Positions 2,168 to 47,416 of a DNA stretch of 64,000 bases are shown here, piece by piece (position 1 is the stretch's first letter; each line of letters opens with the position of its first letter). This stretch comes from Candidatus Hadarchaeota archaeon (lineage in GTDB: Archaea > Hadarchaeota > Hadarchaeia > Hadarchaeales > JAWBSP01): assembly GCA_964474885.1 (NCBI GenBank), contig CAYYWO010000004.1, positions 12,923 through 76,922 of the forward strand, given 5' to 3'. Under the pieces are notes generated by a model that searched no databases, was not told the origin of the DNA, and worked only from the letters and a program-made list of their open reading frames with translations. The translations under genes and the position numbers were made by a program.

Positions 2168-3169
2168 ATGGCAAAGATATATTCGGACACTGATGCTGAC
2201 CTGGATCTCCTCAAGGGAAAAACGATTGCGGTCATGGGTTACGGAAACCAAGGAAGCGCTCAAGCCAACAACCTGAGAGACTCCGGCCTTAGGGTTGTGA
2301 TAGGAGCTAGAGAGGGACCCTCCGCCAAGAGGGCTCGGGAGGACGGGTTCGAGGTGCTCAGCTTCTCGAAGGCTACGGAGGTAGGGGACATCATCCACAT
2401 GCTGATACCCGATGAGTTCCAAGCGGACATCTACCATGCTCATATCGGGCCGAGACTCAAGGCTGGAAAGACCCTCTGCTTCAGTCACGCCTTTAACATT
2501 CACTTCAAGTGGATCGTCCCGCCCTCCGACGTGGACGTCATAATGGTAGCACCCAAGGCACCTGGAGCCCTTTTGAGGCGCATGTTTCAAGCGGGCTCGG
2601 GGGTCCCTGGCCTGATTGCCGTTTACCAAGATGTGAGCGGGAGAGCGAAAGATGTTGCCCTAGCTCTAGCCAAAGGGATCGGCCTGACACGCATAGGTGT
2701 TGTGGAGACGACCTTCAAAGAGGAGGTAGAGACGGACTTGTTCGGGGAACAGGTGGTGCTGGTTGGCGGGGTGTCAGAACTCATCAAAGCCGGCTTCGAG
2801 ACGCTAGTTGAGGCTGGGTACCAGCCGGAGATAGCCTATTTTGAGTGTTTGAATGAGCTCAAGCTGATAGTGGATCTGATATATGAGCGCGGACTCCAAG
2901 GCATGTTCTCTGCGGTTTCGAATACCGCTGAATTCGGAGGATATACGAGGGGACCTCGAATCATCGACAAAAGAGTCCGGGAAAGGATGAGGGAAATCCT
3001 AGCGGAGATCCAGAATGGGAAGTTTGCCGAGGAATGGAAGAGGGAAAAAGAGAACGGTTTTCCCACCCTGAAGCGGGAAAGAGAAAAGCTGGCCCAGCTT
3101 TTGATCGAAAGGGTAGGAAAAGAGCTCCGGAAGTGGGCGGGCATAGAGAAGACAACTGCCCCACCCTGA
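2168..3169 (+). CDS. ilvC: ketol-acid reductoisomerase
   Basis: N-terminus MAKIY...[24 protein letters not shown] Rossmann motif; 333 aa. Confidence 0.95.
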
Positions 3170-14630: not shown

Positions 14631-14948
14631 AAAGTTAACTCGCTTAAAATAGCACACCCTGAGTTCGGGATTGTAAACTTTCGGCCCGGGAGTCTCTCAA
14701 CCTCCTCCGGCCCCCACGTCATCCAGCCTCTGCCCATCCACTGCTGGCGATGACGGGAATGGTTATGCTGCATACACGGCCGTGAGCAAGTCCATCAAAC
14801 TCCTCCACATCCCCCGCCTATTAGGCGGAGCTCCTCTTTAAGTGTAAACAAGATGATGCCAGATTTTTCTCCAGTAAATTAAAATTTTTCGAAGGCCATC
14901 GAAAATTTGAGGTATTTAAAAAGCCGATGGTATTGAAGTTACTCACTT

Positions 14949-17900
14949 TTGTCGGTGAGAGGGGGGATAGGTAGGTGGGCAACGATATTGATAGACCTAC
15001 TTATTGTTCTATCCTATATGCCCCCCGGAGTCCTCGCGGTTCTGAAGACCCCTCAACTCCTTTCACCTGAAAATGACTCTTGGGTGAACGACAACACGCC
15101 CCTGTTCGACTGGACTGATGTCACAGATGCTACAAGCTACCAGATACTCGTTGACAATGACCCTGACTTCACGTCCCCTGAGATCAATGATTTTCCGACC
15201 ACAAGCGAGTACGAACCCACGGTTGAGCTGGAGGAGGGCATCTTCTACTACTGGGAGGTCAGGGCTAGGAATGAGGACACGGGGGACTCCTCCAACTGGT
15301 CTGAGGTTTGGTGCTTCAGGGTGGACATAACTCCTCCCCTTGCCCCTTCCCTCATCTCCCCCGACAACTCCGTTACGCTCTGGGTGGATCAGCCCACTTT
15401 CAGCTGGTCGGAGGTCTCCGACCTGAGCGGGATAACTTACAGGCTTGAGATAGATAACGACCCCAACTTCTCCTCCCCCGCGTACTCCATCCTCCTCACA
15501 GTCACCACCCACCAGCTGGAGAACAAACTGGTCGAGAACTTCTCCCCCTACTACTGGAGGGTGACGGCTGTGGACGGTGCGGGAAACGAAAACTCCTCGG
15601 TCGTGTACAAGTTCAACCTGAAAGTTCCCCCTGCCTCCTCGGTGGATCCGATCTCCCCGTACTGGGAGAACTCCGCCTTCACCGTCACGATGAGCGCCTC
15701 CGACAACGACGGGACGGTGGAAAATGTGGAGCTCTGGTACCGGTACTCGAGCGATAACACGAATTGGGGGGACTGGATCCTTTACGACAACGACTCCACT
15801 CCCCCCCACTCCCTAGTTTTTTCACCGCCCTCCGGTGACGGCTACTACGAGTTCTACTCGAGGGCATGGGACGACAGGGGGAACTACGAGAATGCTCCAG
15901 CCCAAGCGGATGCTAGGTGCGGCTACGATACGGTGGCCCCTCCCGCTCCCGAAAACCTCCTACCGGAAAACAACGCCGACTTGGTGACCCCCACCCCGAC
16001 CCTGGAGTGGTCCAGGGTGAGCGATATGAGCGGTGTCAAGTATGAGGTCTTGGTAGACAACGACAACCTCTTCGAACCCCCTTGGTCCTACCAAGCGGAA
16101 AACCTGGCAGAGAACACGGTTACAACCTCCCCCCTCGCCCCGGGACTTTACTACTGGAAGGTTCGGGCCAGGGACGGAGCGGGCAACTACGGTGCCTGGT
16201 CAGAGGTATACCAGTTCTATGTCAGAGCCTGGAGGCTTTTAGAGGATTTCAATGCTTGCATCCAAACCCTTTCAGGCTGGAGGCCCACCGAGGCACTTTC
16301 CTGCGGTTTATCCTCTCCCGCGAGCTGGATCAGGATCGAGGCACTAGCGGGGGGCATCGCACCCACCTGGTGGAAGCTGGAAGAAAGCTGCTGCACCACC
16401 GAAACACTCGCTGGGTGGAAGTTCGTCGGATCCCTGCAGGCTGGCGTGCGGGCTCTCCTGCCTAGTTGGGTCCGCATCGAGCAGTGGAGCAACACAGTCA
16501 AATCTGTTGGACTCTGGAATCTCCTACACAGCATTAGCTCATCTGTCCACAGCATTCCGGTCGCCTGGAGGTATCTCGAGGGTTGCAGCTCGGTAACCAG
16601 AACCCTGCCCCAGCTTTGGTATTTCTTGGGCTGTTACCAAGGGGGCTGTCGGGCTCCAGCAGGGTGGTTCGGGGTAGAGGAGTGGCTGTGCCACTTGAAC
16701 TTCGCGGCACATTGGCTCACCCTCACCCAGCTGTCTGCAAGCCCGTCGGCTCCGGCCAGCTGGCGCCCCACCGACACCCTCACCTCCTCCACCCAGACCC
16801 GTGGTTACTGGCGGTTGCAAGGGGTATGGAGCGCCGGTCTCCCGGCGCCCGTTCCATCTCCCCGGCTCACCTCACCGGAGAATTCTGCCAACCTGAGCAC
16901 GAATTCACCGCTCCTGTGCTGGGAGAACCTGCTCCCCGCCGACAATTATCACCTCCAAGTCGACAACGAGCCCAACTTTGACCAGCCCGAGGTGGATGTC
17001 TGGCTCACCGAGAACTCCCACCAGCCAACCCTCCCGGACGGGGTCTACTACTGGAGGGTGATGCAGACGAGGAACTCCGCTGCGTCGGAATGGTCCTCAG
17101 TCTTTAGCTTCAGACTCGATACCGTGCCCCCGCCCAAGCCCACCCTCCTCTTCCCAGCGAACCAAAACATAAACGACAACACGCCCCTCTTCCGCTGGAC
17201 CTCAGTCCCGGAGAATTCCCTGCCCCTTAGCTACTGGATAGAGATCGACAACGAGCCGGCCTTCAATCCGCCAAAGCTCCTGTCAACTGGCTGGCTCTGG
17301 GACAACTACTACCAGCTCACCACCGAGCTGTCAGACGGCGAGTACTACTGGAGGGTAAAAGTGAGGGACAATGCGGGGAACTTGGGGGACTGGTCGAGCG
17401 AGAACTTCAGAGTGGACACCGTGAGGCCTTCCGCACCCGCCCCCATTTCACCCACTTCAAACGCCTGGGCATCCGTAACTCCCACCTTCACTTGGCAGAG
17501 GGTCAGTGAGAACTCGTTCCCGGTCAAATACCGCGTGTTCGTGTGCGAGGACTCCGGCTTCGATACAAGCGTCTACAAGGTTTACGTCTCGCCCTGGCTG
17601 ACGGAAAACGAGTGGACCTCCCCCGTGCTGGTGGAGGGGCTCGGGGTGGAAGGGAAGCTCTTCTACTGGAGGGTATGCGCCCTAGACAATGCGGGTAACC
17701 TCAGCGAGAATTCTCCCATTCAGGTCTTCCGGACCGACAACGTTCCACCCTCAGTTCCAGACATCCTAGCTCCCGAGAACTGCGCTTACGTCTCGGAGGT
17801 CTTCACTCTGGCATACACGGCATCGGACGGGGGCTCCGGTGTAGCTAGCTACTGGGTCCAGGTCATGGACGAGAACGGTGAAATAGTTTACGAGAACCAA

Positions 17901-20900
17901 GAGGCTGAGAACAGAGTAGTCTTGCGACTCAGTGAGGGCACCTACCAGTGGAGGGTCAGGGCGAGGGACGCGATCGGGAACCTGAGTGATTGGTCGGCCC
18001 TCTACACCTTCACGGTCAGCATCTGGAGATTCATCGAGAGCTGGAGCCTAGCGCTGGGTACCCCGAGGAGATGGCACCCCATCGAGAGTTTCTCCGCCTC
18101 CTCAGAAGGCCGGGTCTCCTGGAGGGAACTAGACACTTGGGTAGCATCCGCCCTCTGCCCGGCCGGATGGGTGCTTTCAGAGGGAGTTTCCTCGGCTGTG
18201 GGCACACGCGCCAGGTACCTCCAGCTGGCCTCATTGACCGCCACCGTTGCGCCGAAGGCGGGATGGGCCTCGGTTGCCACATTCTCGAGCTCTCTTTCAT
18301 CCCCCGGCTCCTGGGAGCTCCTCGATAGCAGGAGCGCGGAGTCCTCTGCACCGAGCTCTTGGGTGCGGGTGGAGCAAATGATTTCCTCCCTCGCGTACCC
18401 AACCGCCTGGCGGAAGCTGGAGACCTACTCCTGCATCCTGACAAACATGCCTGGCTGGAGATCAGTGGAGGACATCACGGTCCTCCTCTGGAGCCCCTCC
18501 TTCTTCCGCTTCTTGGACTCGTACTGCGGTAAGCTTGCAGGCCCCGTCCGCTGGTGGGTGCTCTCCGCTCAAACATCCGGAGCACGGACGGTTGTCGGAT
18601 GGGCACCCGTTGAGCTCGTGAGTGCGACGTGCAACACCAAGAGGGCATGGACGCTCGTCGGTAGCTATGCTGCACGGACCTCTGCTCCGGCTGTATGGAA
18701 AGGGCTTGCCAGCCTGAGCGCCGCAATCAGCGCCCCGATTCCCACCCCAACGCTGGTCTCCCCCGCGGACGGGACAAACATAAATCCCAATCTTTCCACC
18801 CTGACGCTCCGGTGGGAAAACTCCCTGTCGGCAGACAACTTCGATCTCCAGATCGACAACAATGCCGATTTCTCCTCTCCTGAGGTCTCCGTGACCGTCA
18901 CCGGCAACAAGTACTCGCCCGCGGATCTCCCGGATAATCTGTACTGGTGGAGGGTCAGGCAGAGGAGGACGGGGAGTGTCTCAGGCTGGTCCGGAGCCTG
19001 GAAATTCAGGGTAGACACCCTTGAGCCCTCGCCTCCCGAACCCCTCAGCCCGATCGAGGGCGAGAACCTGAATGATCCCATCCCCGTGCTTGAGTGGTCA
19101 GAACCGCCCGAAAACTCCCTCCCGCTCACCTACAAGGTGCAGGTCGCCACTTCCAGGTTCTTCGAGTCCGGCACCATCCTCAGGGAAACTTGGGTCTCGG
19201 AGCCGAGGTGGGAGGTCTCCCCCGCCCTGCCGGACAACGTCTACTACTGGAGGGTGCTCGCGAGGGACAACGCGGGGAACAACAGCCTGTATTCCGAAGT
19301 CAGGAGCTTCAGGGTGGACACCCTGAGCCCGCCCGCTCCAACACTGGTAGAACCGGAGAACGACAGCTGGGCACCCGGAGACTTCCGCTTCTCTTGGACC
19401 TCCATCCCCGAAAACTCCCTGCCCGTGGTCTACAACCTCGTCATCGCCTACGACTCGGACTTCAGCGAAATGGTAGAGAACGTGTTCCTCCTAGAAAACA
19501 CTTACTCAACCTCCCTAGCAGAGGGTTCCTACTGGTGGAAAGTCAGGGCGAGGGACAATGCTGGTAATTGGAGTGAGTGGTCGGATGCCTGGACCTTCAC
19601 CCTGGACAACACCCCACCCAGCCAGGTCGTCCTGACGAGACCCGAGAACTCCTCCTTCGTCCAGAGCGGACCTGTGACCTTCGGCTGGCAATCCGCCTCG
19701 GATGAGGGTTCGGGTGTGGGGAGGTACTGGATTCAGATCTGGCGCAACGGTTCCTTAGTGTACGAGAACTGCTCGGTGCCCGATAATTCGCTCACGGTGG
19801 AGGTGCCGACCGGGCTGTACTGGTGGAGGGTGAGGGCGGTGGATGTCGCCGGAAATGCGGGCGGGTGGTCGGAGCCATTTGTCTTCACTTCCTCCGACTG
19901 GCACCAGCTCGAATCTTGGCAGCTGCCGCTCGTTGCCCCGGCTAGCTGGAAGGGGGACGAGAGCTGGACCGTCTCCGCTCTCGGAGCTGCCCTCTGGAGA
20001 AAGCTCGAAATCTCGTCGGCTCGCACTAGCTCGCCCGGTCGCTGGGAGCTATCTGACAGTTGGGTCACGTCCATGTGCTCTCCATCGGCTTGGTACAGTC
20101 TGGATGGTAGGAGCATCTCCATCGTCTCCCCCGTTGCCTGGAAGAAGCTCGAAAACTGGATTGGCAGCTGCGCGCTCCCCGCCCTCTGGCACCTAACAGA
20201 AATCCTTCCGGCTTCTCTGAAGACAGTTGCCCACTGGCTGGAACTGGAAGCTCAAACTGGAACCTGCCACGGCTTGCTCGGGAAGTGGAGGCTGATTGAT
20301 CAACTGCAGGGCACGGTGCTCGCACCAGCGTTTTGGCTGCCTCTCATGTCCATTCAGAGCCAGGCAGGAGCCGTGTCCAACTGGCAAAAAGTGAGCACGT
20401 GGCCGGCAACGATCGGTGGCCCCATCCACCCACCGGTCCTGATCGCCCCTGAAAACACCAACACCAATGACAACACGCCCACCTTCCAATGGGACAACCT
20501 CCAGCCTGTCGACAACTTCGAGTTCATGCTCGACAACGATGCGGACTTCAGCTCGCCTGAGGTCCACCTGACAACCTCAGACAAGTCCTACACTTCGGGT
20601 GAGCTGCCCGACGGGGTTTACTGGTGGAGAGTCAGATGCTGGAGGACTGGTACCGCCGGTGGCTGGTCGGAGGTCAGATACTTGAGGGTGGACACCGTCA
20701 GTCCCTCCTCCCCCGACCTGCTGAGCCCGTCCGATGGTGAGGACGTCAGCGATTCAACTCCCGTCCTCAGCTGGAGTTCCCCACCTGAGAACTCCCTGCC
20801 CCTCACCTACAACCTCAAGATCTCAACCTCACCTTACTTCGAGCCCGAGAACATCGTGATTGATGTCTGGGTGGAGGAGAACTCCTACGAGGTATCTGGT

Positions 20901-23465
20901 CTCGACGAAAATGGGGTTTACTACTGGAAGGTATGTGCCAGGGACAATGCGGGAAACACCGGGCCCTTCACACCCTATGCCTGGAGATTCCACATAGATA
21001 CTACGCCGCCCGCCTCACCCTCCCTGCTATCACCGGAAAACCGGGGGTGGGCAAAACCCGAGGCTGAGCTATCCTGGCAGGAGGTACCCGAGAACTCCCC
21101 ACCCGTGCTCTACCTGGTCCAGATCTCCGACTTCCCGGACTTCCTGAACACGGTTAGGGAGGTAAAGACTTATGATAATTCGTGGACGGTCTCCCCACCG
21201 CTGCCCGTCAGCTCCTACTACTGGAGAGTAAAGGCGAGGGACAACGCGGGGAACTGGAGCGAGTGGTCGGAGGTTTGGTGGTTCAAAGTAGATAACGAAG
21301 CACCCTCCAAGCCCAGTTTGATCACACCAGAGAACGGGAGTCATGTCCAGGCGAACGCCCCTTTCACCCTCACCTTCACGGCCTCCGACGGAACGGGTTC
21401 GGGCGTGGCCTACTATCAAGTGCAGATCGACAATGACCCAGCCTTCCCCGCCCCCCTCATCGATGTCACAGTGTCCGATAACAGCTGTCAGGTGTCAGGG
21501 CTGGCTTGGGGGACTTACTACTGGCGCGTGAGAGCCATAGACAACGTGAGTAACGTGGGGCCTTGGTCGGATCCATACATCCTTTATTCGAGTGACTGGA
21601 AACTCTGTGATCGGTTCTCAGTGACTGCCCGAGGAAGGGTGTCTTGGGTGCTCAACGAGCGACTGGCTGGTAGGGTGGGTTCCCCCGCCAACTGGTTCTT
21701 CTGCGAATCGAGATCTGGAGGCATAGAGAACGTCGCTAGAGGATGGTTCTTCTTGGAAAGCTGGGCGAATGAGAACGCAGTTGGGGTGCACTACTGGGCA
21801 TTGGTCGAGAGATGGACTAATGCCCTTCGGGCCTATTCCACGTGGAAACACATCGATGTCCGCTCCTCGCGGCTGTTATCACCTCCAACCTACTGGCTCT
21901 TCCTTGAGCGGGTCACGGGAGAACTCGAGGCGACGTTGGGATGGTGGCTGCTTGAGGATTATGCAGGTGCCCTCACCCTTCCGGCGGGCTGGGAGTACTT
22001 GGAGAACTGGAATTCATCCCTTACAGGAGTGCACTACTGGGTACTGCTGGACGAGTGGCGGAGTCTCGCCTATCACCCCCTCTGGAGAACCCTCGACGTT
22101 ACTCCTTGCAGGCTTAACACACGTGCCGAGCACTACCGGCTGGAGGACAGAAGCGGGTACCTGGGTGTGCCTTCCTCCGCGTGGAGGCACGTAGAAACTG
22201 AGGCAGGCGGGTGTAGGTGGAAACCAGCTCACTGGACCCAAGTCGAGAGAATCCGATCCAGGTCGGTACCTGCCTTCTGGAGGCTACTGGAACGCTTCAG
22301 ATGCGGATTCGGCCCGAAAACAGGCTGGCTGTTCATTGAGAAGAAAATCCTCGGGATACGCACTCCCGCCACGAGATTCCACACTCTAGAGAGTCTCCGA
22401 TCCTCTCTATTCGCCCCACATATCTGGTCCTTGGTCGACAGAGGCAGAGGAGAGGTCTACACGTTCATCCACTGGAAGGCTTACATCAGAAGTGCGTACA
22501 TTCCTAGGAAGGGCTGGTTCGTACTCGAACTCAAAAGTTGCTCTGTCTTCGCTCCGAGATATCTAGAGGAGAGAAAAGAGCGGGAGGTATCGGTAACCCA
22601 AGTGGGGGTGCAGCAGTTCAGTCATTTGAGTGCCAGTGCAGAGAGAGCCTGGTGCAGGGTGCATCCGCCTCACTCGTCTATCTCGGTTGGGGAGTCTAAG
22701 TACCTACCCCCTTGGCTCCCGTCGCTGCCGGGTGAGCTCTGCAGGTACATTGATGTCAAGCTGAAGAACTGCCAGCTACTGAAACTGAGGATCAGGGTAA
22801 GCAAGGCCTGGCTCAAAAAGATGGACAGGAACACCTTGAGGGTTTGGGGGTACAAGGGTGAGTGGGTCTCCCTGCCCTTCGAACTCGCAGCGGAGGACGA
22901 GCTTTACCTGTACCTGGAGTTCGAGTCCCAAGGTTTCAGCTGCTTCGCGGTTACTGCGAGAAGAAAACCCTTCTTCCCGTGGTGGGCTGTTCTGTGGGTA
23001 TGGCTGGGGATCGTGGGAACCCTGGGATATCTGATGCTCCAGCCCTTCATCGGGGAGATACGTCTGCGCAGGCTACAGCAAAAATACGAGGAGTCCCTGA
23101 AAGGTGCTACCTATCGGAAGATAGCGAGCAGGCTCAGATCGATCGGCAGGAAGCTCAGCAAGGAGGATCGAATAGCTCTAAGAGAAATCGCTGAGGAGCT
23201 CAGGCTCCTCCCGCCTCCCACACTGGTCCCCGTGGAAGAAAAGCTCACCAAACCGGAGCTCATTGCCGTTGAGACTCTAGAGAAGTTCATCAGGGAGAGG
23301 AGAAAAAGAATACCCCTCCGCCGCGAGAAGCTGGAGGAACTGAAGAAACTTCAGAGAGAGATGCTGAGACGGCCAAAAGAAAGGCGCCGATCCAAGCGGA
23401 AACGGACCACTAGGAAATATGCCAGGAGCGAGCAGAAGAAGCCCGCTAAGAGATCTAAGAAATAA
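14949..23465 (+). CDS. giant (2838 aa) surface protein: signal/anchor, 4 x [about 4 FN3-like domains + Trp-periodic repeat block], pre-anchor module, TM helix, long basic cytoplasmic tail
   Basis: Uninterrupted 8517-nt ORF. TTG start preceded by TATTTAAAAA about 30 nt upstream. About 16 repeats of the FN3-like consensus tPtF.W...Y.l.vDnd.dFssP....t.y....L.dG.YYWRVRARDNAGN.S.WS. Four W-periodic blocks and a C-terminal TM helix FFPWWAVLWVWLGIVGTLGYLML. Confidence 0.85.
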   Translation: MSVRGGIGRWATILIDLLIVLSYMPPGVLAVLKTPQLLSPENDSWVNDNTPLFDWTDVTDATSYQILVDNDPDFTSPEINDFPTTSEYEPTVELEEGIFYYWEVRARNEDTGDSSNWSEVWCFRVDITPPLAPSLISPDNSVTLWVDQPTFSWSEVSDLSGITYRLEIDNDPNFSSPAYSILLTVTTHQLENKLVENFSPYYWRVTAVDGAGNENSSVVYKFNLKVPPASSVDPISPYWENSAFTVTMSASDNDGTVENVELWYRYSSDNTNWGDWILYDNDSTPPHSLVFSPPSGDGYYEFYSRAWDDRGNYENAPAQADARCGYDTVAPPAPENLLPENNADLVTPTPTLEWSRVSDMSGVKYEVLVDNDNLFEPPWSYQAENLAENTVTTSPLAPGLYYWKVRARDGAGNYGAWSEVYQFYVRAWRLLEDFNACIQTLSGWRPTEALSCGLSSPASWIRIEALAGGIAPTWWKLEESCCTTETLAGWKFVGSLQAGVRALLPSWVRIEQWSNTVKSVGLWNLLHSISSSVHSIPVAWRYLEGCSSVTRTLPQLWYFLGCYQGGCRAPAGWFGVEEWLCHLNFAAHWLTLTQLSASPSAPASWRPTDTLTSSTQTRGYWRLQGVWSAGLPAPVPSPRLTSPENSANLSTNSPLLCWENLLPADNYHLQVDNEPNFDQPEVDVWLTENSHQPTLPDGVYYWRVMQTRNSAASEWSSVFSFRLDTVPPPKPTLLFPANQNINDNTPLFRWTSVPENSLPLSYWIEIDNEPAFNPPKLLSTGWLWDNYYQLTTELSDGEYYWRVKVRDNAGNLGDWSSENFRVDTVRPSAPAPISPTSNAWASVTPTFTWQRVSENSFPVKYRVFVCEDSGFDTSVYKVYVSPWLTENEWTSPVLVEGLGVEGKLFYWRVCALDNAGNLSENSPIQVFRTDNVPPSVPDILAPENCAYVSEVFTLAYTASDGGSGVASYWVQVMDENGEIVYENQEAENRVVLRLSEGTYQWRVRARDAIGNLSDWSALYTFTVSIWRFIESWSLALGTPRRWHPIESFSASSEGRVSWRELDTWVASALCPAGWVLSEGVSSAVGTRARYLQLASLTATVAPKAGWASVATFSSSLSSPGSWELLDSRSAESSAPSSWVRVEQMISSLAYPTAWRKLETYSCILTNMPGWRSVEDITVLLWSPSFFRFLDSYCGKLAGPVRWWVLSAQTSGARTVVGWAPVELVSATCNTKRAWTLVGSYAARTSAPAVWKGLASLSAAISAPIPTPTLVSPADGTNINPNLSTLTLRWENSLSADNFDLQIDNNADFSSPEVSVTVTGNKYSPADLPDNLYWWRVRQRRTGSVSGWSGAWKFRVDTLEPSPPEPLSPIEGENLNDPIPVLEWSEPPENSLPLTYKVQVATSRFFESGTILRETWVSEPRWEVSPALPDNVYYWRVLARDNAGNNSLYSEVRSFRVDTLSPPAPTLVEPENDSWAPGDFRFSWTSIPENSLPVVYNLVIAYDSDFSEMVENVFLLENTYSTSLAEGSYWWKVRARDNAGNWSEWSDAWTFTLDNTPPSQVVLTRPENSSFVQSGPVTFGWQSASDEGSGVGRYWIQIWRNGSLVYENCSVPDNSLTVEVPTGLYWWRVRAVDVAGNAGGWSEPFVFTSSDWHQLESWQLPLVAPASWKGDESWTVSALGAALWRKLEISSARTSSPGRWELSDSWVTSMCSPSAWYSLDGRSISIVSPVAWKKLENWIGSCALPALWHLTEILPASLKTVAHWLELEAQTGTCHGLLGKWRLIDQLQGTVLAPAFWLPLMSIQSQAGAVSNWQKVSTWPATIGGPIHPPVLIAPENTNTNDNTPTFQWDNLQPVDNFEFMLDNDADFSSPEVHLTTSDKSYTSGELPDGVYWWRVRCWRTGTAGGWSEVRYLRVDTVSPSSPDLLSPSDGEDVSDSTPVLSWSSPPENSLPLTYNLKISTSPYFEPENIVIDVWVEENSYEVSGLDENGVYYWKVCARDNAGNTGPFTPYAWRFHIDTTPPASPSLLSPENRGWAKPEAELSWQEVPENSPPVLYLVQISDFPDFLNTVREVKTYDNSWTVSPPLPVSSYYWRVKARDNAGNWSEWSEVWWFKVDNEAPSKPSLITPENGSHVQANAPFTLTFTASDGTGSGVAYYQVQIDNDPAFPAPLIDVTVSDNSCQVSGLAWGTYYWRVRAIDNVSNVGPWSDPYILYSSDWKLCDRFSVTARGRVSWVLNERLAGRVGSPANWFFCESRSGGIENVARGWFFLESWANENAVGVHYWALVERWTNALRAYSTWKHIDVRSSRLLSPPTYWLFLERVTGELEATLGWWLLEDYAGALTLPAGWEYLENWNSSLTGVHYWVLLDEWRSLAYHPLWRTLDVTPCRLNTRAEHYRLEDRSGYLGVPSSAWRHVETEAGGCRWKPAHWTQVERIRSRSVPAFWRLLERFRCGFGPKTGWLFIEKKILGIRTPATRFHTLESLRSSLFAPHIWSLVDRGRGEVYTFIHWKAYIRSAYIPRKGWFVLELKSCSVFAPRYLEERKEREVSVTQVGVQQFSHLSASAERAWCRVHPPHSSISVGESKYLPPWLPSLPGELCRYIDVKLKNCQLLKLRIRVSKAWLKKMDRNTLRVWGYKGEWVSLPFELAAEDELYLYLEFESQGFSCFAVTARRKPFFPWWAVLWVWLGIVGTLGYLMLQPFIGEIRLRRLQQKYEESLKGATYRKIASRLRSIGRKLSKEDRIALREIAEELRLLPPPTLVPVEEKLTKPELIAVETLEKFIRERRKRIPLRREKLEELKKLQREMLRRPKERRRSKRKRTTRKYARSEQKKPAKRSKK
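16224..16862 (+). repeat. Trp-periodic repeat block 1 inside giant gene (approximate)
   Basis: About 10 units of about 21 aa, each with W-[RK]-x-[LV]-[ED] (WRLLED, WIRIEAL, WWKLEE, WVRIEQW). Confidence 0.6.
18016..18745 (+). repeat. Trp-periodic repeat block 2 (approximate)
   Basis: SIWRFIESW, SWRELDTW, SWELLDSR, SWVRVEQM, AWRKLETY, GWRSVEDI at about 21-aa spacing. Confidence 0.6.
19891..20420 (+). repeat. Trp-periodic repeat block 3 (approximate)
   Basis: DWHQLESW, SWKGDESW, LWRKLEIS, RWELSDSW, AWKKLENW, KWRLIDQL etc. Confidence 0.6.
21589..22560 (+). repeat. Trp-periodic repeat block 4 (longest; approximate)
   Basis: DWKLCDRF, NWFFCESR, GWFFLESW, HYWALVERW, TYWLFLERV, GWWLLEDY, HYWVLLDEW, FWRLLERF, GWLFIEKK, GWFVLELK. 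Confidence 0.6.
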
Positions 23466-24016
23466 TGCTCCCCAAGGTACAGGGTCGAGACCACCATTAG
23501 GGACAGGATGCACGCCCAGCCTAGCGTCCACCCCGTGCCCAGAGTGCGGATGAAGAGCAAACAGGACAGGCCGTTCCCCGCGTGCATGGACGGAAAGGAG
23601 CCCCAAGGATAGGGATTGAAGTTCTCCGTGAAGCCTGCCAGCTCGTTTCTGACAGACCTGACGCCTTCTACCGCAAGTCTGGGGGGGCTCACGGGGTAGA
23701 GGAGCCAGGTCACCTGAGCCGCTATCTGGCTTATAATGAAGACCAGCAGGTACTGCCTGAACGCCTCAGCTTTCCTGAAAGAGAGAAGGCATGCTGTCCC
23801 GTAAATCAGAATTGGATATCCTAAGAGATATACAGCCAGATTGAGGAGATCCATCAATTTCGATGACATCCTCTCCTGGATCTCCACGACTAGCTCACCG
23901 TCGAAGGAGTTGGGATTCTGAGGGACTGGGTAAAATCTGGGGAGGAAGTCGAAGATCATCACAGCAAGGGCGAAAATCATTATCCTGCTCAGATGCTTTT
24001 TAAGGTGTCTGTCCAT
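23351..24016 (-). CDS. PAP2 (type 2 phosphatidic acid phosphatase) family membrane protein
   Basis: PAP2 signature pieces SFPSMHA and GEHYFLD; multi-pass. Its last 115 nt overlap the 3' end of the giant gene on the opposite strand. Confidence 0.7.
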   Translation of the reverse strand: MDRHLKKHLSRIMIFALAVMIFDFLPRFYPVPQNPNSFDGELVVEIQERMSSKLMDLLNLAVYLLGYPILIYGTACLLSFRKAEAFRQYLLVFIISQIAAQVTWLLYPVSPPRLAVEGVRSVRNELAGFTENFNPYPWGSFPSMHAGNGLSCLLFIRTLGTGWTLGWACILSLMVVSTLYLGEHYFLDLLAGFFCSLLAYFLVVRFRLDRRLSFGRLSISL

Positions 24017-24031
24017 CCAACCTTTGAAGGG

Positions 24032-25132
24032 CTATTTAAAGAGGATGCGCAGCAGGGCGTGAGGGAGGCATTTGACGGACCTAACGTGGTGATCGAAGTC
24101 CGCCCCCAAAACTATCGCCCGCCTAAGGCTGTCGGAACGAAGCAGGTAGTACAGCACCTTCAATCGCCTAGGCCCCAGCGAAAAGAGAGTGGAGGAAATC
24201 ACCCTCCCCCACCTGAACTCCGACCCGAAGCGCCTCCGGACCTCCTCTTGGTAGGAGTCCAAGGGGGAGCCCCGCTCTAGGAAGTCGTTGATCGAGCTTG
24301 CCGCCAGCTGCGAGCAGGACAATCCAATGTAAAGCCCCCCCTTCGTTATGGGCTTGACCTGCGCTGCCGCATCCCCCACCAAGAGGATCCCATTTCTCAC
24401 CAAGTGGGGCGAATCGAGGGGGATGATATCCGCGCACGGCTTCCCGCAAGATCCCCTGATCCTACCCATCCGGTGCAGCTTGGAGAGGAAGCGTTCCAGG
24501 TGAGAGAACGGGTTGTCGTAGCTACCCAGACCCACCCTCGCCCGGTCGCCCGCGGGTACCAGCCAGCTGAAGAAACCCGGAGGCGAGCCGAGGAAGACCT
24601 CCGCTACCCCCTCCGTTACTTCCGCCCTGACCTCCACCTGGGCGAAATTCATGAACCTCCTCCCCTTCACTAGACCTGAGCGCCTCCCGACTAGGCTGTT
24701 CGGCCCGTCCGCCCCCACTATCACCCTAGCCCGCCTGCAGCTGCCGTTGACCTCGATCTCCCCGCGCCTGACCTTCCTGCACCTGGACCTCAGGTTCAGC
24801 TGGGCCCCCGCATTCACCGCTAGATCCGCGATTTGCTGGTCGAACCTGGGCCTGTCCAGCACCCACGCCTGGGGCTCCGGGGCCCAGAGCTCGGCCCTCT
24901 CACCGGTTGGGAAGTGGAGCACCGCCCCCCTCAGCTCCTCCAGAATCAGGCTACGCTTGGGCCGGATGCCTATCTCCTCCATACCCCTTATCCCCACGAT
25001 GCCCGCGCAGCACCAGGGGTAACCGATCCTGGGATGCTCCTCAAAAATTGCCACCTCCCAGCCTGCGCTCGCCAGCCTGCAGGCCAAAAAGCATCCAGTG
25101 GGGCCACCACCTATTACCGCAACGTCAAGCAT
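24032..25132 (-). CDS. geranylgeranyl reductase family FAD-dependent oxidoreductase (archaeal lipid saturation)
   Basis: N-terminal FAD motif DVAVIGGGPTGCFLACRLA; 366 aa. Confidence 0.85.
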   Translation of the reverse strand: MLDVAVIGGGPTGCFLACRLASAGWEVAIFEEHPRIGYPWCCAGIVGIRGMEEIGIRPKRSLILEELRGAVLHFPTGERAELWAPEPQAWVLDRPRFDQQIADLAVNAGAQLNLRSRCRKVRRGEIEVNGSCRRARVIVGADGPNSLVGRRSGLVKGRRFMNFAQVEVRAEVTEGVAEVFLGSPPGFFSWLVPAGDRARVGLGSYDNPFSHLERFLSKLHRMGRIRGSCGKPCADIIPLDSPHLVRNGILLVGDAAAQVKPITKGGLYIGLSCSQLAASSINDFLERGSPLDSYQEEVRRRFGSEFRWGRVISSTLFSLGPRRLKVLYYLLRSDSLRRAIVLGADFDHHVRSVKCLPHALLRILFK

Positions 25133-45065: not shown

Positions 45066-47416
45066 CTAACGATAAAATGATAGCTATTCTCGGATATCAC
45101 ATGTTCGCCCCTTCTCAATTCCAGTTCCAACCTGAGATCGACCGGCTCGGTACAGCTGAAGGAGACCTCATTCGTCTTCACAGCGCAGTCGGGCAGGACC
45201 TCCACCTTGAACGAGCCCTCCCGCAACACTTCCCCCTCGGATTCACCCGGACAGACTGTGACCGGCTTGGAAAAAGTGGGGAAGTTCAGCCAGGGGACAT
45301 ACAACTCCCCGATGATCCAGATCCGGCTCCCTCGGATCACCCTGTTTCTCGTCTTCAGGAGCCTCCAGCGAATCTCACAGTCTCCCAAGGACGTGTGGTA
45401 ATCGTTTATGACCCAGACAGGTAACTTCACCTCCTCTCCCTTTCTGAACACGCTGCGCTCCCAATCTACACAAACGAGAATTGGTGAGAAGGCTTTCCTC
45501 AGTGCATAGTAACCCAACATGGGTTGCCTCTCGTGATCAATCACCCCCCACGCTATAGACGGCCACCAGTTGACGAACTGAAAACTCAAAAGTCCGCCCG
45601 TGGGCTTATACCGCTTGATCCTAAACTGTTCAACATAGTACTTCAGCAGCTCGGCTTGGTAGAGCTGGCTCGCCATCGCAAAATCCTCAAAGGACTTGTA
45701 CTTTTTCCAGCTACCCAAGTACGTGCATAGGATTGAGAGTTGCCCGTCGTGGTACCTCCATTTCTTCCAGTTCGGGGGCCAAGCGTCCTCTACCCATCTC
45801 TTGAAACCGAGGGGAACCGCCTGTGAACCGAACTCGGTCGGAAACGGGTCTTTTCTCTTCCTGACCTTTGTGAAGACATTACCATACCAGCCCAGATAGA
45901 TGTGGGAGTCTCCTTTTCCGCTCGCCTTGTGGACGGGACGCGACCGGTCGATGAAGGTAGCAGTTTTGAACAGTTCGTCATCAAGGCGCTTGTTGCCTAC
46001 TCTGAACCAGATCCAAAGCGGCTCGTTATGACAGCACCAAAGGACGACCGAGGGATGATTGTAGTGCAGGTATATCATCTCGGCTAACATCCGCCTGCAC
46101 TTGTCGATGAATCCTGGATCCGAACGATAGCCCCATTGGAGAGTGAAGTCTTGCCACACCATTATACCTTGTTCATCTAGGACGTCGTAGAGGAGAGGTG
46201 GCTCCACGTGAGCATGTACCCTGATCATGTTCATGTTGGCCTTCTTGAGGAGTTTCACATCTCTCTCGTAGAATTCTCTCGTCACCCTCGACATCCACTC
46301 CGTTGAGATATAGTTCGTGCCCCGGATGAAGATGCGCCTCCCGTTTATGTACCAGTGATATGCGTCTGGACCCCTCCGCTCATCCCCTTTTTCGTCGAGT
46401 TCTCCGCCAAGCCTGACCGTTCGTATCCCAAATCTGTCGGTTCTCTCGTCCCAGCACTCCCCTCTACAAAGTATCTGGCTATGAAGGGTGTAAAGTGCAG
46501 GAGTGCCCAGCTCTGGATGGTCCCAAGGAAACCAGAGCTTTGGGTTTTTCAACTCGAGCTCGACAGAGGTGTGATTCGGCCCCGGGAGCGCCGTTAGCCG
46601 GTAGGTCCAGTTCTTTTCAGCTTCCTTTACCTCGAACATGAGCGACACATCGACCGGGCTTGATCTCCTGTTCGTCAGAAAAACGTCCAAGTTTATTTTC
46701 GCCCTGTCTCCCCTCAGCTCTGGTGTGATGAATACCCAGTCAAAGCGAACAGGACCCGTGACGAGGAGACGCACAGGTCTGTAGATGCCTCCGCTCCCAA
46801 GCGATTGGGAGGTCTTAGCGTCCAGCAAATCTCCCGGTCTACAGTCATGGAAATTCAAGATGCCCTTAACCAGATGCTTGGACGAAAGGAAGTTCATTAG
46901 AAGTCCTCTGCCCCTTATCCCTCTATCATAGGGATCTTGGACTTTTACCGCCAATAAGTTTTCTTCCCTCAGTTTGTCCGTGACGTCAAAATAGAAGGGG
47001 CAAAAATATCCCTCGTGCTCGCCCAGCTTTTCACCGTTGAGCCACACTTCTGCCAAGTAATCCACCCCTTCGAAGAGCAATCTGGCTTCCCCTCTGCCCC
47101 GCCATCTGAATCCCCTTCTGAACCAAACCGGTTCGTGAAAGTTCTGAAGCCCCGGGATATCCACGAAGTTGCTGGGGATCTCCACTTCCTTCCATCCTTC
47201 GTCCGACAATTCTGGCGAGAACCAACCCTCTTTCTCCCCTCGCCCGCTCGGATCTGGCTGGTACTTCCAAATGCCAATCAAATCGATTGACCTGTGGACG
47301 TGCCTACGCACCCTCTGCTTCTTCCCGGGTTTGCACTCCACTTCCTCCGCCTCTGAGAGGGAACTAAAGATAGAATGACGCATGACTGGCACAAATCGGG
47401 GAGTAAGCTCCTTCAC
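45062..47416 (-). CDS. glycoside hydrolase family 2 (beta-galactosidase/beta-mannosidase-like)
   Basis: GH2 sugar-binding N-domain (WLNGEKLGEHEGYFCPFYFDVT) and TIM barrel (IRGTNYI, NMIRVHAH); 784 aa. Confidence 0.8.
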   Translation of the reverse strand: MKELTPRFVPVMRHSIFSSLSEAEEVECKPGKKQRVRRHVHRSIDLIGIWKYQPDPSGRGEKEGWFSPELSDEGWKEVEIPSNFVDIPGLQNFHEPVWFRRGFRWRGRGEARLLFEGVDYLAEVWLNGEKLGEHEGYFCPFYFDVTDKLREENLLAVKVQDPYDRGIRGRGLLMNFLSSKHLVKGILNFHDCRPGDLLDAKTSQSLGSGGIYRPVRLLVTGPVRFDWVFITPELRGDRAKINLDVFLTNRRSSPVDVSLMFEVKEAEKNWTYRLTALPGPNHTSVELELKNPKLWFPWDHPELGTPALYTLHSQILCRGECWDERTDRFGIRTVRLGGELDEKGDERRGPDAYHWYINGRRIFIRGTNYISTEWMSRVTREFYERDVKLLKKANMNMIRVHAHVEPPLLYDVLDEQGIMVWQDFTLQWGYRSDPGFIDKCRRMLAEMIYLHYNHPSVVLWCCHNEPLWIWFRVGNKRLDDELFKTATFIDRSRPVHKASGKGDSHIYLGWYGNVFTKVRKRKDPFPTEFGSQAVPLGFKRWVEDAWPPNWKKWRYHDGQLSILCTYLGSWKKYKSFEDFAMASQLYQAELLKYYVEQFRIKRYKPTGGLLSFQFVNWWPSIAWGVIDHERQPMLGYYALRKAFSPILVCVDWERSVFRKGEEVKLPVWVINDYHTSLGDCEIRWRLLKTRNRVIRGSRIWIIGELYVPWLNFPTFSKPVTVCPGESEGEVLREGSFKVEVLPDCAVKTNEVSFSCTEPVDLRLELELRRGEHVISENSYHFIVR

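Follow-up and report, generated by a model that had tools for sequence, protein, structure and literature searches.

PGF-CTERM glycoproteins, the substrates of archaeosortase A that include the S-layer glycoprotein of Haloferax volcanii, are exported proteins with Ig-like beta-sandwich domains and a PGF-pre-PGF-type domain placed just before a C-terminal hydrophobic helix. The giant protein of Hadarchaeota described here, encoded in a 64-kb stretch of DNA that was analysed as a whole (hereafter the window), has the same arrangement and would likewise be exported. In contrast to these glycoproteins, it has no PGF tripeptide and no reported TIGR04126 match, it carries a conserved, presumably cytoplasmic tail of 110-138 aa where theirs is a few basic residues, it is several times larger, and it contains blocks of a 16-residue tryptophan repeat, which we call W16.

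Ig-like arrays are combined with a beta-solenoid in bacterial fibre adhesins, such as the ice-binding adhesin MpIBP of Marinomonas primoryensis, the autotransporter passengers pertactin, Ag43 and Hap, and the two-partner-secreted adhesin EtpA. The giant protein has no sequence relationship to any of these. Their coils measure 19-25 aa and they depend on T1SS, T5SS or the outer membrane, whereas the predicted coil here is Trp-based and 16 aa long, the anchor is an archaeal type-I transmembrane (TM) helix, and each of four bead arrays is followed by a rod. Among archaea, Staphylothermus tetrabrachion and the SlaB proteins of Sulfolobales show the topology proposed here, with the N-terminus outside, a long rigid stalk and one C-terminal TM helix. 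Nevertheless, the stalks of those proteins are built from coiled coils or from a few beta-sandwich domains, without an alternation of FN3 domains and W16, and no homology of the giant protein to tetrabrachion or SlaB was detected. The SPEARE proteins of Nanohaloarchaeota and the halomucin of Haloquadratum are also multi-thousand-residue, repeat-rich and lineage-specific envelope proteins, thought to serve contact or protection. Their domain content is unlike that of the giant protein, and none of them is found among the 207 matches to W16.

Ice nucleation proteins resemble the W16 blocks in having a 16-residue repeat in long unbroken tandem arrays on a cell-surface protein, and give a precedent for a 16-residue coil, as their repeats have been modelled as a beta-solenoid (PMC9418140). 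However, the ice nucleation consensus consists of Thr/Ser/Tyr water-organising motifs, unrelated to the W..[LIV]E.W.GT[VI]..P of W16; taxon and anchoring differ as well, and the W16 solenoid is a predicted fold. The Pfam Ice_nucleation profile (AGYGST-type) gave no match at E <= 10 with either the W blocks or the idealised paralogue repeats.

A conserved giant gene with a GTG start

The positions 14949..23465 (+) form a single unbroken ORF of 8.5 kb, with 2838 codons if the TTG at 14949 is counted, as reported in the first-pass annotation of the window. According to that annotation, a hydrophobic leader was available only with the TTG start. However, the GTG at 14955 supplies a leader too and is the conserved start: the "TCGGTG" start context is identical at five orthologous loci, orthologues show equivalent leaders when read from the GTG, and at one orthologous locus (L001) the codon equivalent to TTG 14949 is a TAG stop. 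Therefore, the product has 2836 aa, which is also the length of a database entry (P0001) 100% identical to it.

The protein consists of a signal peptide-like leader, four supermodules, each composed of four FN3/Ig-like domains of ~91-108 aa followed by a Trp-repeat block, a PGF-pre-PGF domain, a TM helix and a tail (Table 1). This four-fold organisation had been recognised from the first reading, in contrast to features that had been missed: the phylum-restricted W16 family, the PGF-pre-PGF domain and the tail motif. The upstream palindrome is also new. A Kyte-Doolittle scan recovered two hydrophobic segments and no others, at aa 11-33 and at aa 2679-2699, which fits a signal peptide and one C-terminal TM helix in a type-I topology, in agreement with the topology initially predicted. 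Within the leader, a Tat signal was ruled out because the RR pair varies among orthologues, as was a lipobox because Cys is absent; a class III pilin-type signal was also considered and ruled out on the leader sequences. Pfam and NCBIfam profile searches found no enzymatic domain in the giant protein, in line with the lack of enzymatic motifs noted before.

Table 1. Features of the giant gene and its upstream region (positions in the window).
Feature	Position	Strand	Details
Putative promoter region	14874..14923	+	two A/T-rich TATA-like boxes, ~14874-14888 and 14913-14923, flanking the palindrome; presumed function
Perfect palindrome TTTCGA-N6-TCGAAA, candidate operator	14887..14904	+	~50 nt upstream of the GTG
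Giant-protein CDS	14955..23465	+	conserved GTG start; 2836 aa plus stop; maximal ORF from TTG 14949
Signal-peptide-like leader, N-terminal	14955..15047	+	aa ~3-33, hydrophobic core aa 11-33; Kyte-Doolittle scan
FN3/Ig-like array 1	15039..16229	+	domains aa 31-127, 128-227, 228-329, 330-427
W16 block 1	16230..16847	+	~13 units, aa 428-633 (206 aa); 24-25% identity to orthologues
FN3/Ig-like array 2	16848..18023	+	aa 634-1025; fourth domain aa 935-1025, "TASDGGSGV" variant
W16 block 2	18024..18734	+	~15 units, aa 1026-1262 (237 aa)
FN3/Ig-like array 3	18735..19898	+	aa 1263-1650; variant is the fourth domain, aa 1558-1650
W16 block 3	19899..20420	+	~11 units, aa 1651-1824 (174 aa)
FN3/Ig-like array 4	20421..21596	+	aa 1825-2216; variant is the fourth domain, aa 2118-2216
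W16 block 4	21597..22568	+	~20 units, aa 2217-2540 (324 aa); membrane side
Membrane-proximal beta domain	22569..22976	+	~135 aa, aa ~2541-2676; C-terminal half matches PGF-pre-PGF (TIGR04213)
TM helix, single	22977..23048	+	aa ~2677-2700; preceded by conserved P.[FY]FP.W motif
Cytoplasmic K/R/E-rich tail	23049..23462	+	138 aa; R27, K21, E19; location presumed from topology
Tail motif LVPVEEKLTKPELIAVETLEKFIRERRKR	23223..23309	+	aa 2759-2787; invariant P...P.......PE..A...L..FI..RR

Full-length orthologues with a like architecture and 39-47% identity were found in at least six independent assemblies of Hadarchaeales/Hadarchaeota. Four of the database proteins (P0002-P0005) are 40-47% identical to the query across 98-99% of its length, and two further relatives (P0006 and P0007) share the C-terminal region. 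A genome scan with a narrow C-terminal alignment gave three loci, and one conserved orthologue, full-length and of fixed architecture, is present on each of the ortholog-bearing contigs examined. The sequence comparisons thus indicate that the giant ORF is a real, conserved gene under selection. The alternatives to one real protein, namely a pseudogene, a fused ORF or an artefact of assembly, would draw on nothing beyond the metagenome-assembled source genome and the non-ATG start, and their probability is close to nil: the 2300-2940-aa architecture is shared by independent NCBI, JGI, ENA and Logan assemblies, the orthologues keep module order and start context, and there are no near-identical DNA repeats able to mislead an assembler. 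Indeed, the longest DNA-level repeat family in the gene is 111 nt with 72% identity and most families are 60-79% identical, consistent with the old duplications already proposed, and TRF found no relevant tandem array, just a 25-nt microrepeat with a 12-nt period.

FN3/Ig-like arrays

The FN3-like nature of the beta-sandwich repeats, first deduced from the letters, was borne out by profile and structure searches. Three Pfam families matched above their curated whole-protein thresholds, individual domains scoring 19-34 bits each: PF25788 Ig_Rha78A_N (131 bits against a threshold of 27.4, across 10 stretches), PF19077 Big_13 (99.7 bits against 27) and PF00041 fn3 (35.1 bits against 25). The fourth domain of array 4 was modelled by AlphaFold with a pLDDT of ~90, and the model, a seven-stranded beta-sandwich, superposes on solved FN3 folds. 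A variant domain had been assigned to the fourth place of each set. This holds for supermodules 2-4; in supermodule 1, in contrast, the variant is the third domain (aa 228-329), which belongs to a separate, weakly Big_7-like subtype. In array 2, the NCBIfam profile search matched an OmpL47-type domain at aa 953-1017.

The FN3 domains mostly show 55-78% identity to orthologues and carry 19 N-glycosylation sequons. Array 1 is the best-kept region of the protein, its domains 1-3 being 64-78% and its domain 4 45-67% identical to those of orthologues.

A 16-residue tryptophan repeat

The Trp-periodic blocks had been described as 8-15 repeats with a Trp every 20-22 aa. Our counts disagree on both points. 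The Trp residues recur every 16 aa (sub-spacing 6+10): 37 W-W pairs lie at spacing 16, against 5.2 +/- 2.1 (maximum 12) in 2000 shuffles, while spacings 20 and 21 yield just one and two pairs, and the blocks hold from ~11 to ~20 units (Table 1). Block 3 contains a run of eight units that are each exactly 16 aa apart, and block 4 also shows a ~81-aa higher-order repeat ("GVHYW"). In cleaner paralogues the unit reads a.W.[LIV][LIV]E.W.GT[VI]..P, and one of them, P0030, has "QWNLIESWTATVRAPA" ~40 times, as near-perfect W16 units, those at aa ~951-1206 among them. The Trp at position 3 is present in all register-selected units, an aliphatic residue at 6, E/D at 7 and an aromatic residue at 9 in most; Pro at 16 is also a scaffold position, and Gly is conserved at 11. 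These scaffold residues have been kept while the DNA and the other positions diverged.

An exhaustive profile search retrieved W16 in 207 of 1.84 billion representative proteins, the named ones being nearly all from Hadarchaeota, and the unit is retained across ~200 protein clusters. No Pfam, NCBIfam or PDB entry matches it. Therefore, W16 appears to be an undescribed, phylum-restricted repeat, so far found almost only in Hadarchaeota. Many W16 proteins are labelled "PGF-pre-PGF domain-containing protein" by the source databases, and one W16 paralogue is fused to a HerA/DUF87 ATPase. W16 repeats also occur on two contigs assigned outside Hadarchaeota, one from a Thorarchaeota and one from a "Deltaproteobacteria" MAG. 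Pfam matches of idealised repeats to DUF3499 and to the galactokinase signature were dismissed as short, repeated partial matches, and a 16-aa-spaced Trp triplet on the minus strand (45415-45463), which sits in a GH2 glycosidase, was attributed to chance.

The W blocks share 22-35% identity with orthologues, and their length differences among orthologues are whole multiples of ~16 aa (+1, +4, +3 and -1 units). Block 2 is ~64 aa (4 units) longer in three orthologues, block 3 of orthologues is either 48 aa (3 units) longer or 17 aa (~1 unit) shorter, and block 4 is constant at 323-324 aa. The low identity, together with the low AlphaFold confidence described below, would suit flexible, poorly structured spacers whose periodicity is a relic of tandem duplication. 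Nevertheless, such spacers are a very improbable explanation: the scaffold positions persist despite the divergence around them, insertions and deletions comprise whole units with the length of block 4 kept exactly, the unit is preserved in those ~200 clusters, and the blocks are Trp-rich and hydrophobic, unlike usual disordered linkers.

Fold of the W16 blocks

From a low-confidence AlphaFold model, each 16-aa unit is most likely one coil of a thin beta-solenoid, and as beta-solenoid coils the W blocks would serve as stiff spacer rods. DSSP assigns one ~10-residue strand and one isolated bridge to each unit of the model, the Foldseek matches include pectate lyases, and the W block superposes on monomeric beta-helices. 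The pLDDT of the W-repeat region is 45-60 in the context of the protein, and AlphaFold on eight repeat units alone, with 54 in-register paralogous rows, gave a pLDDT of 33 and no secondary structure. The hydrophobic positions 3, 6, 9, 13 and 16 follow a 3.2-residue period (dominant harmonic 112.5 degrees), and thus there is no clean strand alternation; moreover, a simple two-sheet coil would turn the conserved Glu inward. Mutual information with APC over 1316 three-unit windows, aimed at telling parallel stacking from hairpins, gave couplings only at the same position, +16 and +32, and the absence of an anti-diagonal signal in these windows comes from an analysis confounded by protein-specific repeat flavours.

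Some of these properties would also be compatible with obligate-oligomer fibrous beta structures. The adenovirus fibre shaft, a triple beta-spiral, has a 15-residue repeat, near the W16 period. In a triple beta-spiral or triple beta-helix, the surface fibre would be a homotrimer or another oligomer whose rods are inter-chain structures, possibly kept in register with help from the charged helical tail. The poor single-chain predictions are what we would expect of an obligate oligomer, Gly 11 and Pro 16 are conserved in each unit, and the hydrophobic pattern departs from simple in/out alternation. However, in the sole model obtained the W block is a single-chain solenoid and superposes on beta-helices that are themselves monomeric, and none of the solved fibres resembles W16 in sequence; we consider intertwined chains unlikely.

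Membrane-proximal domain, TM helix and tail

What had been seen as a ~90-aa pre-anchor module is a larger unit, as AlphaFold models the whole ~135-aa membrane-proximal region as one beta domain with a pLDDT of ~90. The NCBIfam profile TIGR04213 matches aa 2607-2670 marginally and partially (29.2 bits, the cutoff being 28; positions 87-153 of the 153-position profile). The domain is 51-55% identical to that of orthologues, and its end at aa ~2676 directly abuts the start of the TM helix at aa ~2677. No PGF tripeptide is present at this start, where the sequence is RRKPFFPWWAVLW, containing PFFPWW (P.[FY]FP.W in orthologues), and TIGR04126 (PGF-CTERM) gave no match at E <= 1 in the NCBIfam search. 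Instead of ending in the short basic cluster of the PGF-CTERM type, the helix leads into a conserved tail of 138 aa, and no archaeosortase was found among the scanned ORFs of the window.

The tail, whose K/R/E-rich composition and length agree with the ~140 aa first noted, is 51-58% identical to that of orthologues and is better kept than the W blocks. The residues of its motif are invariant in an alignment of paralogous families that are just 28-34% identical overall, and a strict regular expression finds the motif in 16 of 109 W16 proteins. This conservation suggests a docking site for a cytoplasmic partner.

Upstream region and gene neighbourhood

The palindrome upstream of the GTG occurs once in the window, against 0.08 matches expected. 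It is perfect, unique and equally far from the start at two orthologous loci (L001 and L002), and carries a single mismatch, located in its second half-site, at two others (L006 and L007). An A/T-rich box lies directly 5' of the palindrome at all five orthologous loci. Together, these sequence features suggest control by a dedicated regulator. The giant gene stands alone among housekeeping genes, and an operon with its neighbours was ruled out, since other orthologous loci have different neighbours; the downstream PAP2 and FAD oxidoreductase genes are common to just one of them.

A proposed membrane-anchored surface fibre

We propose, with a probability of roughly 55%, that the gene product is an extracellular fibre of a Hadarchaeota archaeon with type-I topology and a C-terminal membrane anchor, acting as an adhesin or a scaffold. 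A Sec-type leader would direct export of the chain, which would be anchored by its one TM helix, leaving the charged tail inside the cytoplasm. From the membrane outward, the PGF-pre-PGF beta domain would be followed by the constant-length, 20-unit Trp-repeat rod and, further out, by three more rounds of four FN3-like domains plus a Trp-repeat rod, up to a distal tip formed by the N-terminal FN3 array, the most conserved one. The molecule would thus be a beads-and-rods fibre of ~85-95 nm, a length obtained from 16 FN3 domains of ~3.5-4 nm and ~59 coils of 0.48 nm. Such a fibre could scaffold the envelope or attach the cell to surfaces or to partner cells.

The observations are equally consistent with an adhesin, an S-layer protein or a cell-cell contact protein. 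As the main S-layer protein, the giant protein would form a canopy or lattice with its FN3 arrays, and its stalk across the pseudo-periplasm would consist of the PGF-pre-PGF domain together with the W16 rods. It would then resemble tetrabrachion or SlaB, which are anchored at the C-terminus, or the S-layer glycoprotein of Haloferax with its Ig domains. This role is supported by the type-I anchor, the Ig-like arrays, the PGF-pre-PGF domain typical of archaeal surface glycoproteins, the sequons of the FN3 parts and the single fixed-architecture orthologue on every ortholog-bearing contig examined. In contrast, a conserved GTG start would be odd for a very abundant protein, a ~90 nm fibre is a long stalk, the W blocks are fast-evolving, and the many giant paralogues with shared modules and anchor are more like an adhesin repertoire. 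No S-layer family was matched at E <= 1 in Pfam or NCBIfam, which speaks to described families and not to the role. We regard a main S-layer protein as rather doubtful; the use of GTG as start codon and the large number of paralogues weakly favour an adhesin.

Implications for Hadarchaeota

Our searches of the literature on the envelope, surface proteins, S-layers and giant proteins of Hadarchaeota, and on PGF-pre-PGF, found nothing relevant, and we know of no cultured Hadarchaeota. W16 is compact, highly regular, absent from Pfam, NCBIfam and PDB, and beyond current structure prediction. These properties make it a clearly delimited target for structural biology, and it may provide a new rod-like scaffold. 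Tentatively, it may represent a new structural repeat class, either a thin Trp/Glu-ladder beta-solenoid or an obligate-oligomer fold, that builds a family of envelope-spanning fibres in Hadarchaeota. If this were true, fibres combining W16, FN3 domains, the PGF-pre-PGF/TM anchor and the PE..A...L..FI..RR motif would couple the outside to a cytoplasmic partner, mechanically or by signalling. The tail motif offers a handle on that putative partner, and the upstream palindrome one on a candidate regulator. Among candidates for cell-surface display in Hadarchaeota, the giant gene and its paralogues stand out most clearly, and so they are also candidates for attachment to minerals or partner cells.

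Domain architecture

In the layout built from a single-module self-scan together with Pfam and NCBIfam, the giant protein runs through four supermodules, a beta domain of about 135 aa and one transmembrane helix into a tail, each supermodule consisting of four beta-sandwich domains (91-108 aa) and, after them, a Trp-periodic block. The FN3-like character that the first-pass annotation had given to the arrays is borne out by Pfam, where the whole protein scores 131 bits with Ig_Rha78A_N, matched over 10 stretches, 99.7 with Big_13 and 35 with fn3. The same annotation had placed the [ST]ASD..SGV variant domain always fourth in its set, which holds for supermodules 2-4 but not for supermodule 1, where the odd domain is third, of another subtype and weakly Big_7-like in Pfam. 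N-glycosylation sequons are very unevenly distributed, the FN3 domains having 19 in 1569 aa and the Trp-repeat blocks 1 in 941 aa.

Coordinates of the giant gene, its product and flanking features (the window unless a locus is named)
Feature	Nucleotides	Strand	Residues	Remarks
Maximal ORF	14949..23465	+		2838 codons from TTG, uninterrupted
Beta-sandwich array 1			31-427	
W16 block 1 (W1)			428-633	~13 units
Beta-sandwich array 2			634-1025	
W16 block 2 (W2)			1026-1262	~15 units
Beta-sandwich array 3			1263-1650	
W16 block 3 (W3)			1651-1824	~11 units
Beta-sandwich array 4			1825-2216	
W16 block 4 (W4)			2217-2540	~20 units
'GVHYW' marks in W4	21783-21808; 22026-22051		~2279-2287; ~2360-2368	
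Membrane-proximal beta domain			2541-2676	~135 aa; C-terminal half matches PGF-pre-PGF
Tail motif LVPVEEKLTKPELIAVETLEKFIRERRKR	23223-23309		2759-2787	invariant P...P.......PE..A...L..FI..RR
PAP2 phosphatase and FAD-dependent oxidoreductase genes	23351-25132	-		convergent on the giant gene 3' end
Palindrome TTTCGA-N6-TCGAAA	14887-14904			perfect; ~50 nt upstream of GTG
Palindrome, locus L001	7876-7893			perfect, unique, same spacing to start
Palindrome, locus L002	7905-7922			perfect, unique, same spacing to start
Palindrome, locus L006	~2933-2950			one mismatch
Palindrome, locus L007	~2933-2950			one mismatch

Gene integrity, start codon and upstream region

The claim of a single uninterrupted frame stands, and GC content and skew are unremarkable across it. 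TRF retrieved no relevant tandem repeat from the DNA, only a 25-nt microrepeat, and the dispersed repeats within the ORF are just 60-79% identical (the longest, 111 nt, at 72%). Therefore, as first proposed, the modules arose by old duplications rather than as an artefact of assembly, and we regard an artefactual ORF as barely credible.

The hydrophobic leader had been thought available only with the TTG start; GTG 14955, the third codon, supplies it too. The context TTG-TCG-GTG (14949-14957) is conserved. Since the hexamer 'TCGGTG' is the same across the five orthologous loci examined, and the TTG-equivalent codon of L001 is a TAG stop, this GTG is, from the sequence comparison, the likely conserved start, so that the product has 2836 aa and not 2838; database protein P0001, identical in sequence, has the same length. 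Read from the GTG, the orthologues too begin with a basic n-region, which leads into a hydrophobic core, and a Kyte-Doolittle scan of the product found two hydrophobic segments only, at aa 11-33 and 2679-2699.

The palindrome upstream of the gene occurs once in the window (0.08 matches expected) and is kept in all five loci, three times perfectly and twice with one mismatch, each time with an A/T-rich TATA-like box on its 5' side. It is a candidate operator for some regulator. The giant gene is solitary among housekeeping genes, and the remaining window is ordinary archaeal chromosome (PEPCK, PheRS, AFOR, ArgJ, tRNAs). The PAP2 ORF overlaps the final ~115 nt of the giant gene; together with the FAD-dependent oxidoreductase gene it forms a downstream pair that is shared with L001 only and is absent from L002, L006 and L007, whose neighbours differ from those of the window.

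The Trp repeat, its distribution and its conservation

The period is not the 20-22 aa first reported but 16 aa: 37 W-W pairs lie 16 apart, compared with 5.2 +/- 2.1 in shuffles (maximum 12; n=2000), and spacings of 20 and 21 account for one and two pairs. Laid out in register, the units of this repeat (W16) follow the consensus [AS][SG]W.[L][LVI][ED].[WLFY]...[LAV]..P in the window. They are far cleaner in paralogues, where 'QWNLIESWTATVRAPA' recurs about 40 times in P0030 and the consensus for the family reads a.W.[LIV][LIV]E.W.GT[VI]..P. W4, the block nearest the membrane, also displays a higher-order repeat of five units (~81 aa), with 'GVHYW' as a mark that the orthologues keep. No Pfam or NCBIfam model covers W16 even at E <= 10, and a four-unit profile found no match among PDB sequences.

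When 1.84 billion representative proteins were searched exhaustively with a profile, just 207 carried the unit at E <= 1e-3 (131 at E <= 1e-10, 72 at E <= 1e-30). About ten bear the organism name Hadesarchaea, Hadarchaeales or Hadarchaeota, and several others are labelled 'PGF-pre-PGF domain-containing protein' alone. Two named exceptions (P0025, P0133) lie on contigs <10 kb of MAGs labelled Thorarchaeota and Deltaproteobacteria, and may reflect mis-binning or horizontal transfer. Genomes scanned with the conserved C-terminal region yielded three loci, all Hadarchaeota. The full-length search returned P0001 first, then P0002-P0005 (40-47% identity, 98-99% query coverage), and below them other relatives, those named being Candidatus Hadarchaeales or Hadarchaeota. 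The protein is already in public databases, its named relatives bearing only the labels 'hypothetical', 'Ig-like domain-containing' or 'PGF-pre-PGF domain-containing'. Some members of the W16/PGF-pre-PGF family are 5100-7800 aa long (P0262, P0139, P0181, P0203), which makes the window protein one of medium size. A 3523-aa Hadarchaeales protein (P0060, P0193, P0264) carries DUF87/HerA-type ATPase domains in addition to W16 repeats and Ig-like domains, which suggests that these extracellular modules are also joined to a cytoplasmic motor.

Region by region, identity to four full-length orthologues is mostly 55-78% in the FN3 domains (highest, 64-78%, in the first three N-terminal ones), 51-55% in the PGF-pre-PGF domain and 51-58% in the tail, and merely 22-35% in the W blocks. 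These blocks differ in length by whole units (+16, +64, +48, -17 aa), and W4, which adjoins the membrane, has 323-324 aa in each of the four orthologues. Therefore, at the level of sequence, the W16 unit behaves as a structural module constrained on its scaffold positions only, and we find it improbable that the blocks are unstructured spacers.

The best-supported reading of the W16 fold is a predicted beta-solenoid. AlphaFold was run on aa 2118-2676 (18 alignment rows); in the resulting model, whose W4 pLDDT is just 45-60, DSSP assigned to each W4 unit one strand of ~10 residues over 'sW..lE.w..' and an isolated bridge at position 13. Pectate lyases were among the Foldseek matches, and ice nucleation proteins offer a precedent for 16-residue coils (PMC9418140). 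Against a solenoid, the repeats modelled alone (54 in-register rows) reached a pLDDT of 33 without any secondary structure, positions 3, 6, 9, 13 and 16, the hydrophobic ones, follow a 3.2-residue period without strict alternation, and covariation analysis was uninformative. For these reasons an obligate-oligomer fibrous fold of the rods, within the same surface fibre, stays a live if doubtful alternative.

Membrane anchor and tail

The FN3/Ig-like and PGF-pre-PGF domain families both include this protein, which scores 29.2 bits with the PGF-pre-PGF model TIGR04213 (NCBIfam; cutoff 28). It nevertheless lacks the features that define an archaeosortase A substrate and is not a PGF-CTERM protein: the motif before the transmembrane helix is P.[FY]FP.W and not PGF, a long conserved tail comes after the helix (the last 138 residues of the protein are R/K/E-rich), and no PGF-CTERM match was reported among the NCBIfam matches. 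The motif of the predicted cytoplasmic tail is invariant among paralogous families only 28-34% identical overall, with the pattern [VI]P[VI]..+[LM]T.PE[LR].A[VI]..L.+FI..RR, and is doubled in some of them (P0010, P0012, P0013); a strict regular expression recovers it in 16 of 109 W16 proteins. A cytoplasmic partner, or a step in sorting, may lie behind this motif.

A putative surface fibre of Hadarchaeota

Apparently undescribed are the W16 repeat family and the fact that it is nearly confined to Hadarchaeota, the alternation of FN3 arrays and W16 blocks four times over, the motif conserved in the tail, and the palindrome upstream of the gene. By analogy, the way of working would be like that of bacterial giant Ig-repeat/beta-helix adhesins and of C-terminally anchored archaeal stalk proteins, with no sequence membership in either, and an S-layer lattice or stalk protein seems unlikely to us. 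We favour, at a probability of about 0.55, a type-I anchored extracellular fibre in which FN3 'bead' arrays alternate with stiff W16 rods. Provided that the rods are solenoids, this fibre would be ~85-95 nm long (16 x 3.5-4 nm plus 59 x 0.48 nm), and its role would be in attachment or in scaffolding of the envelope.
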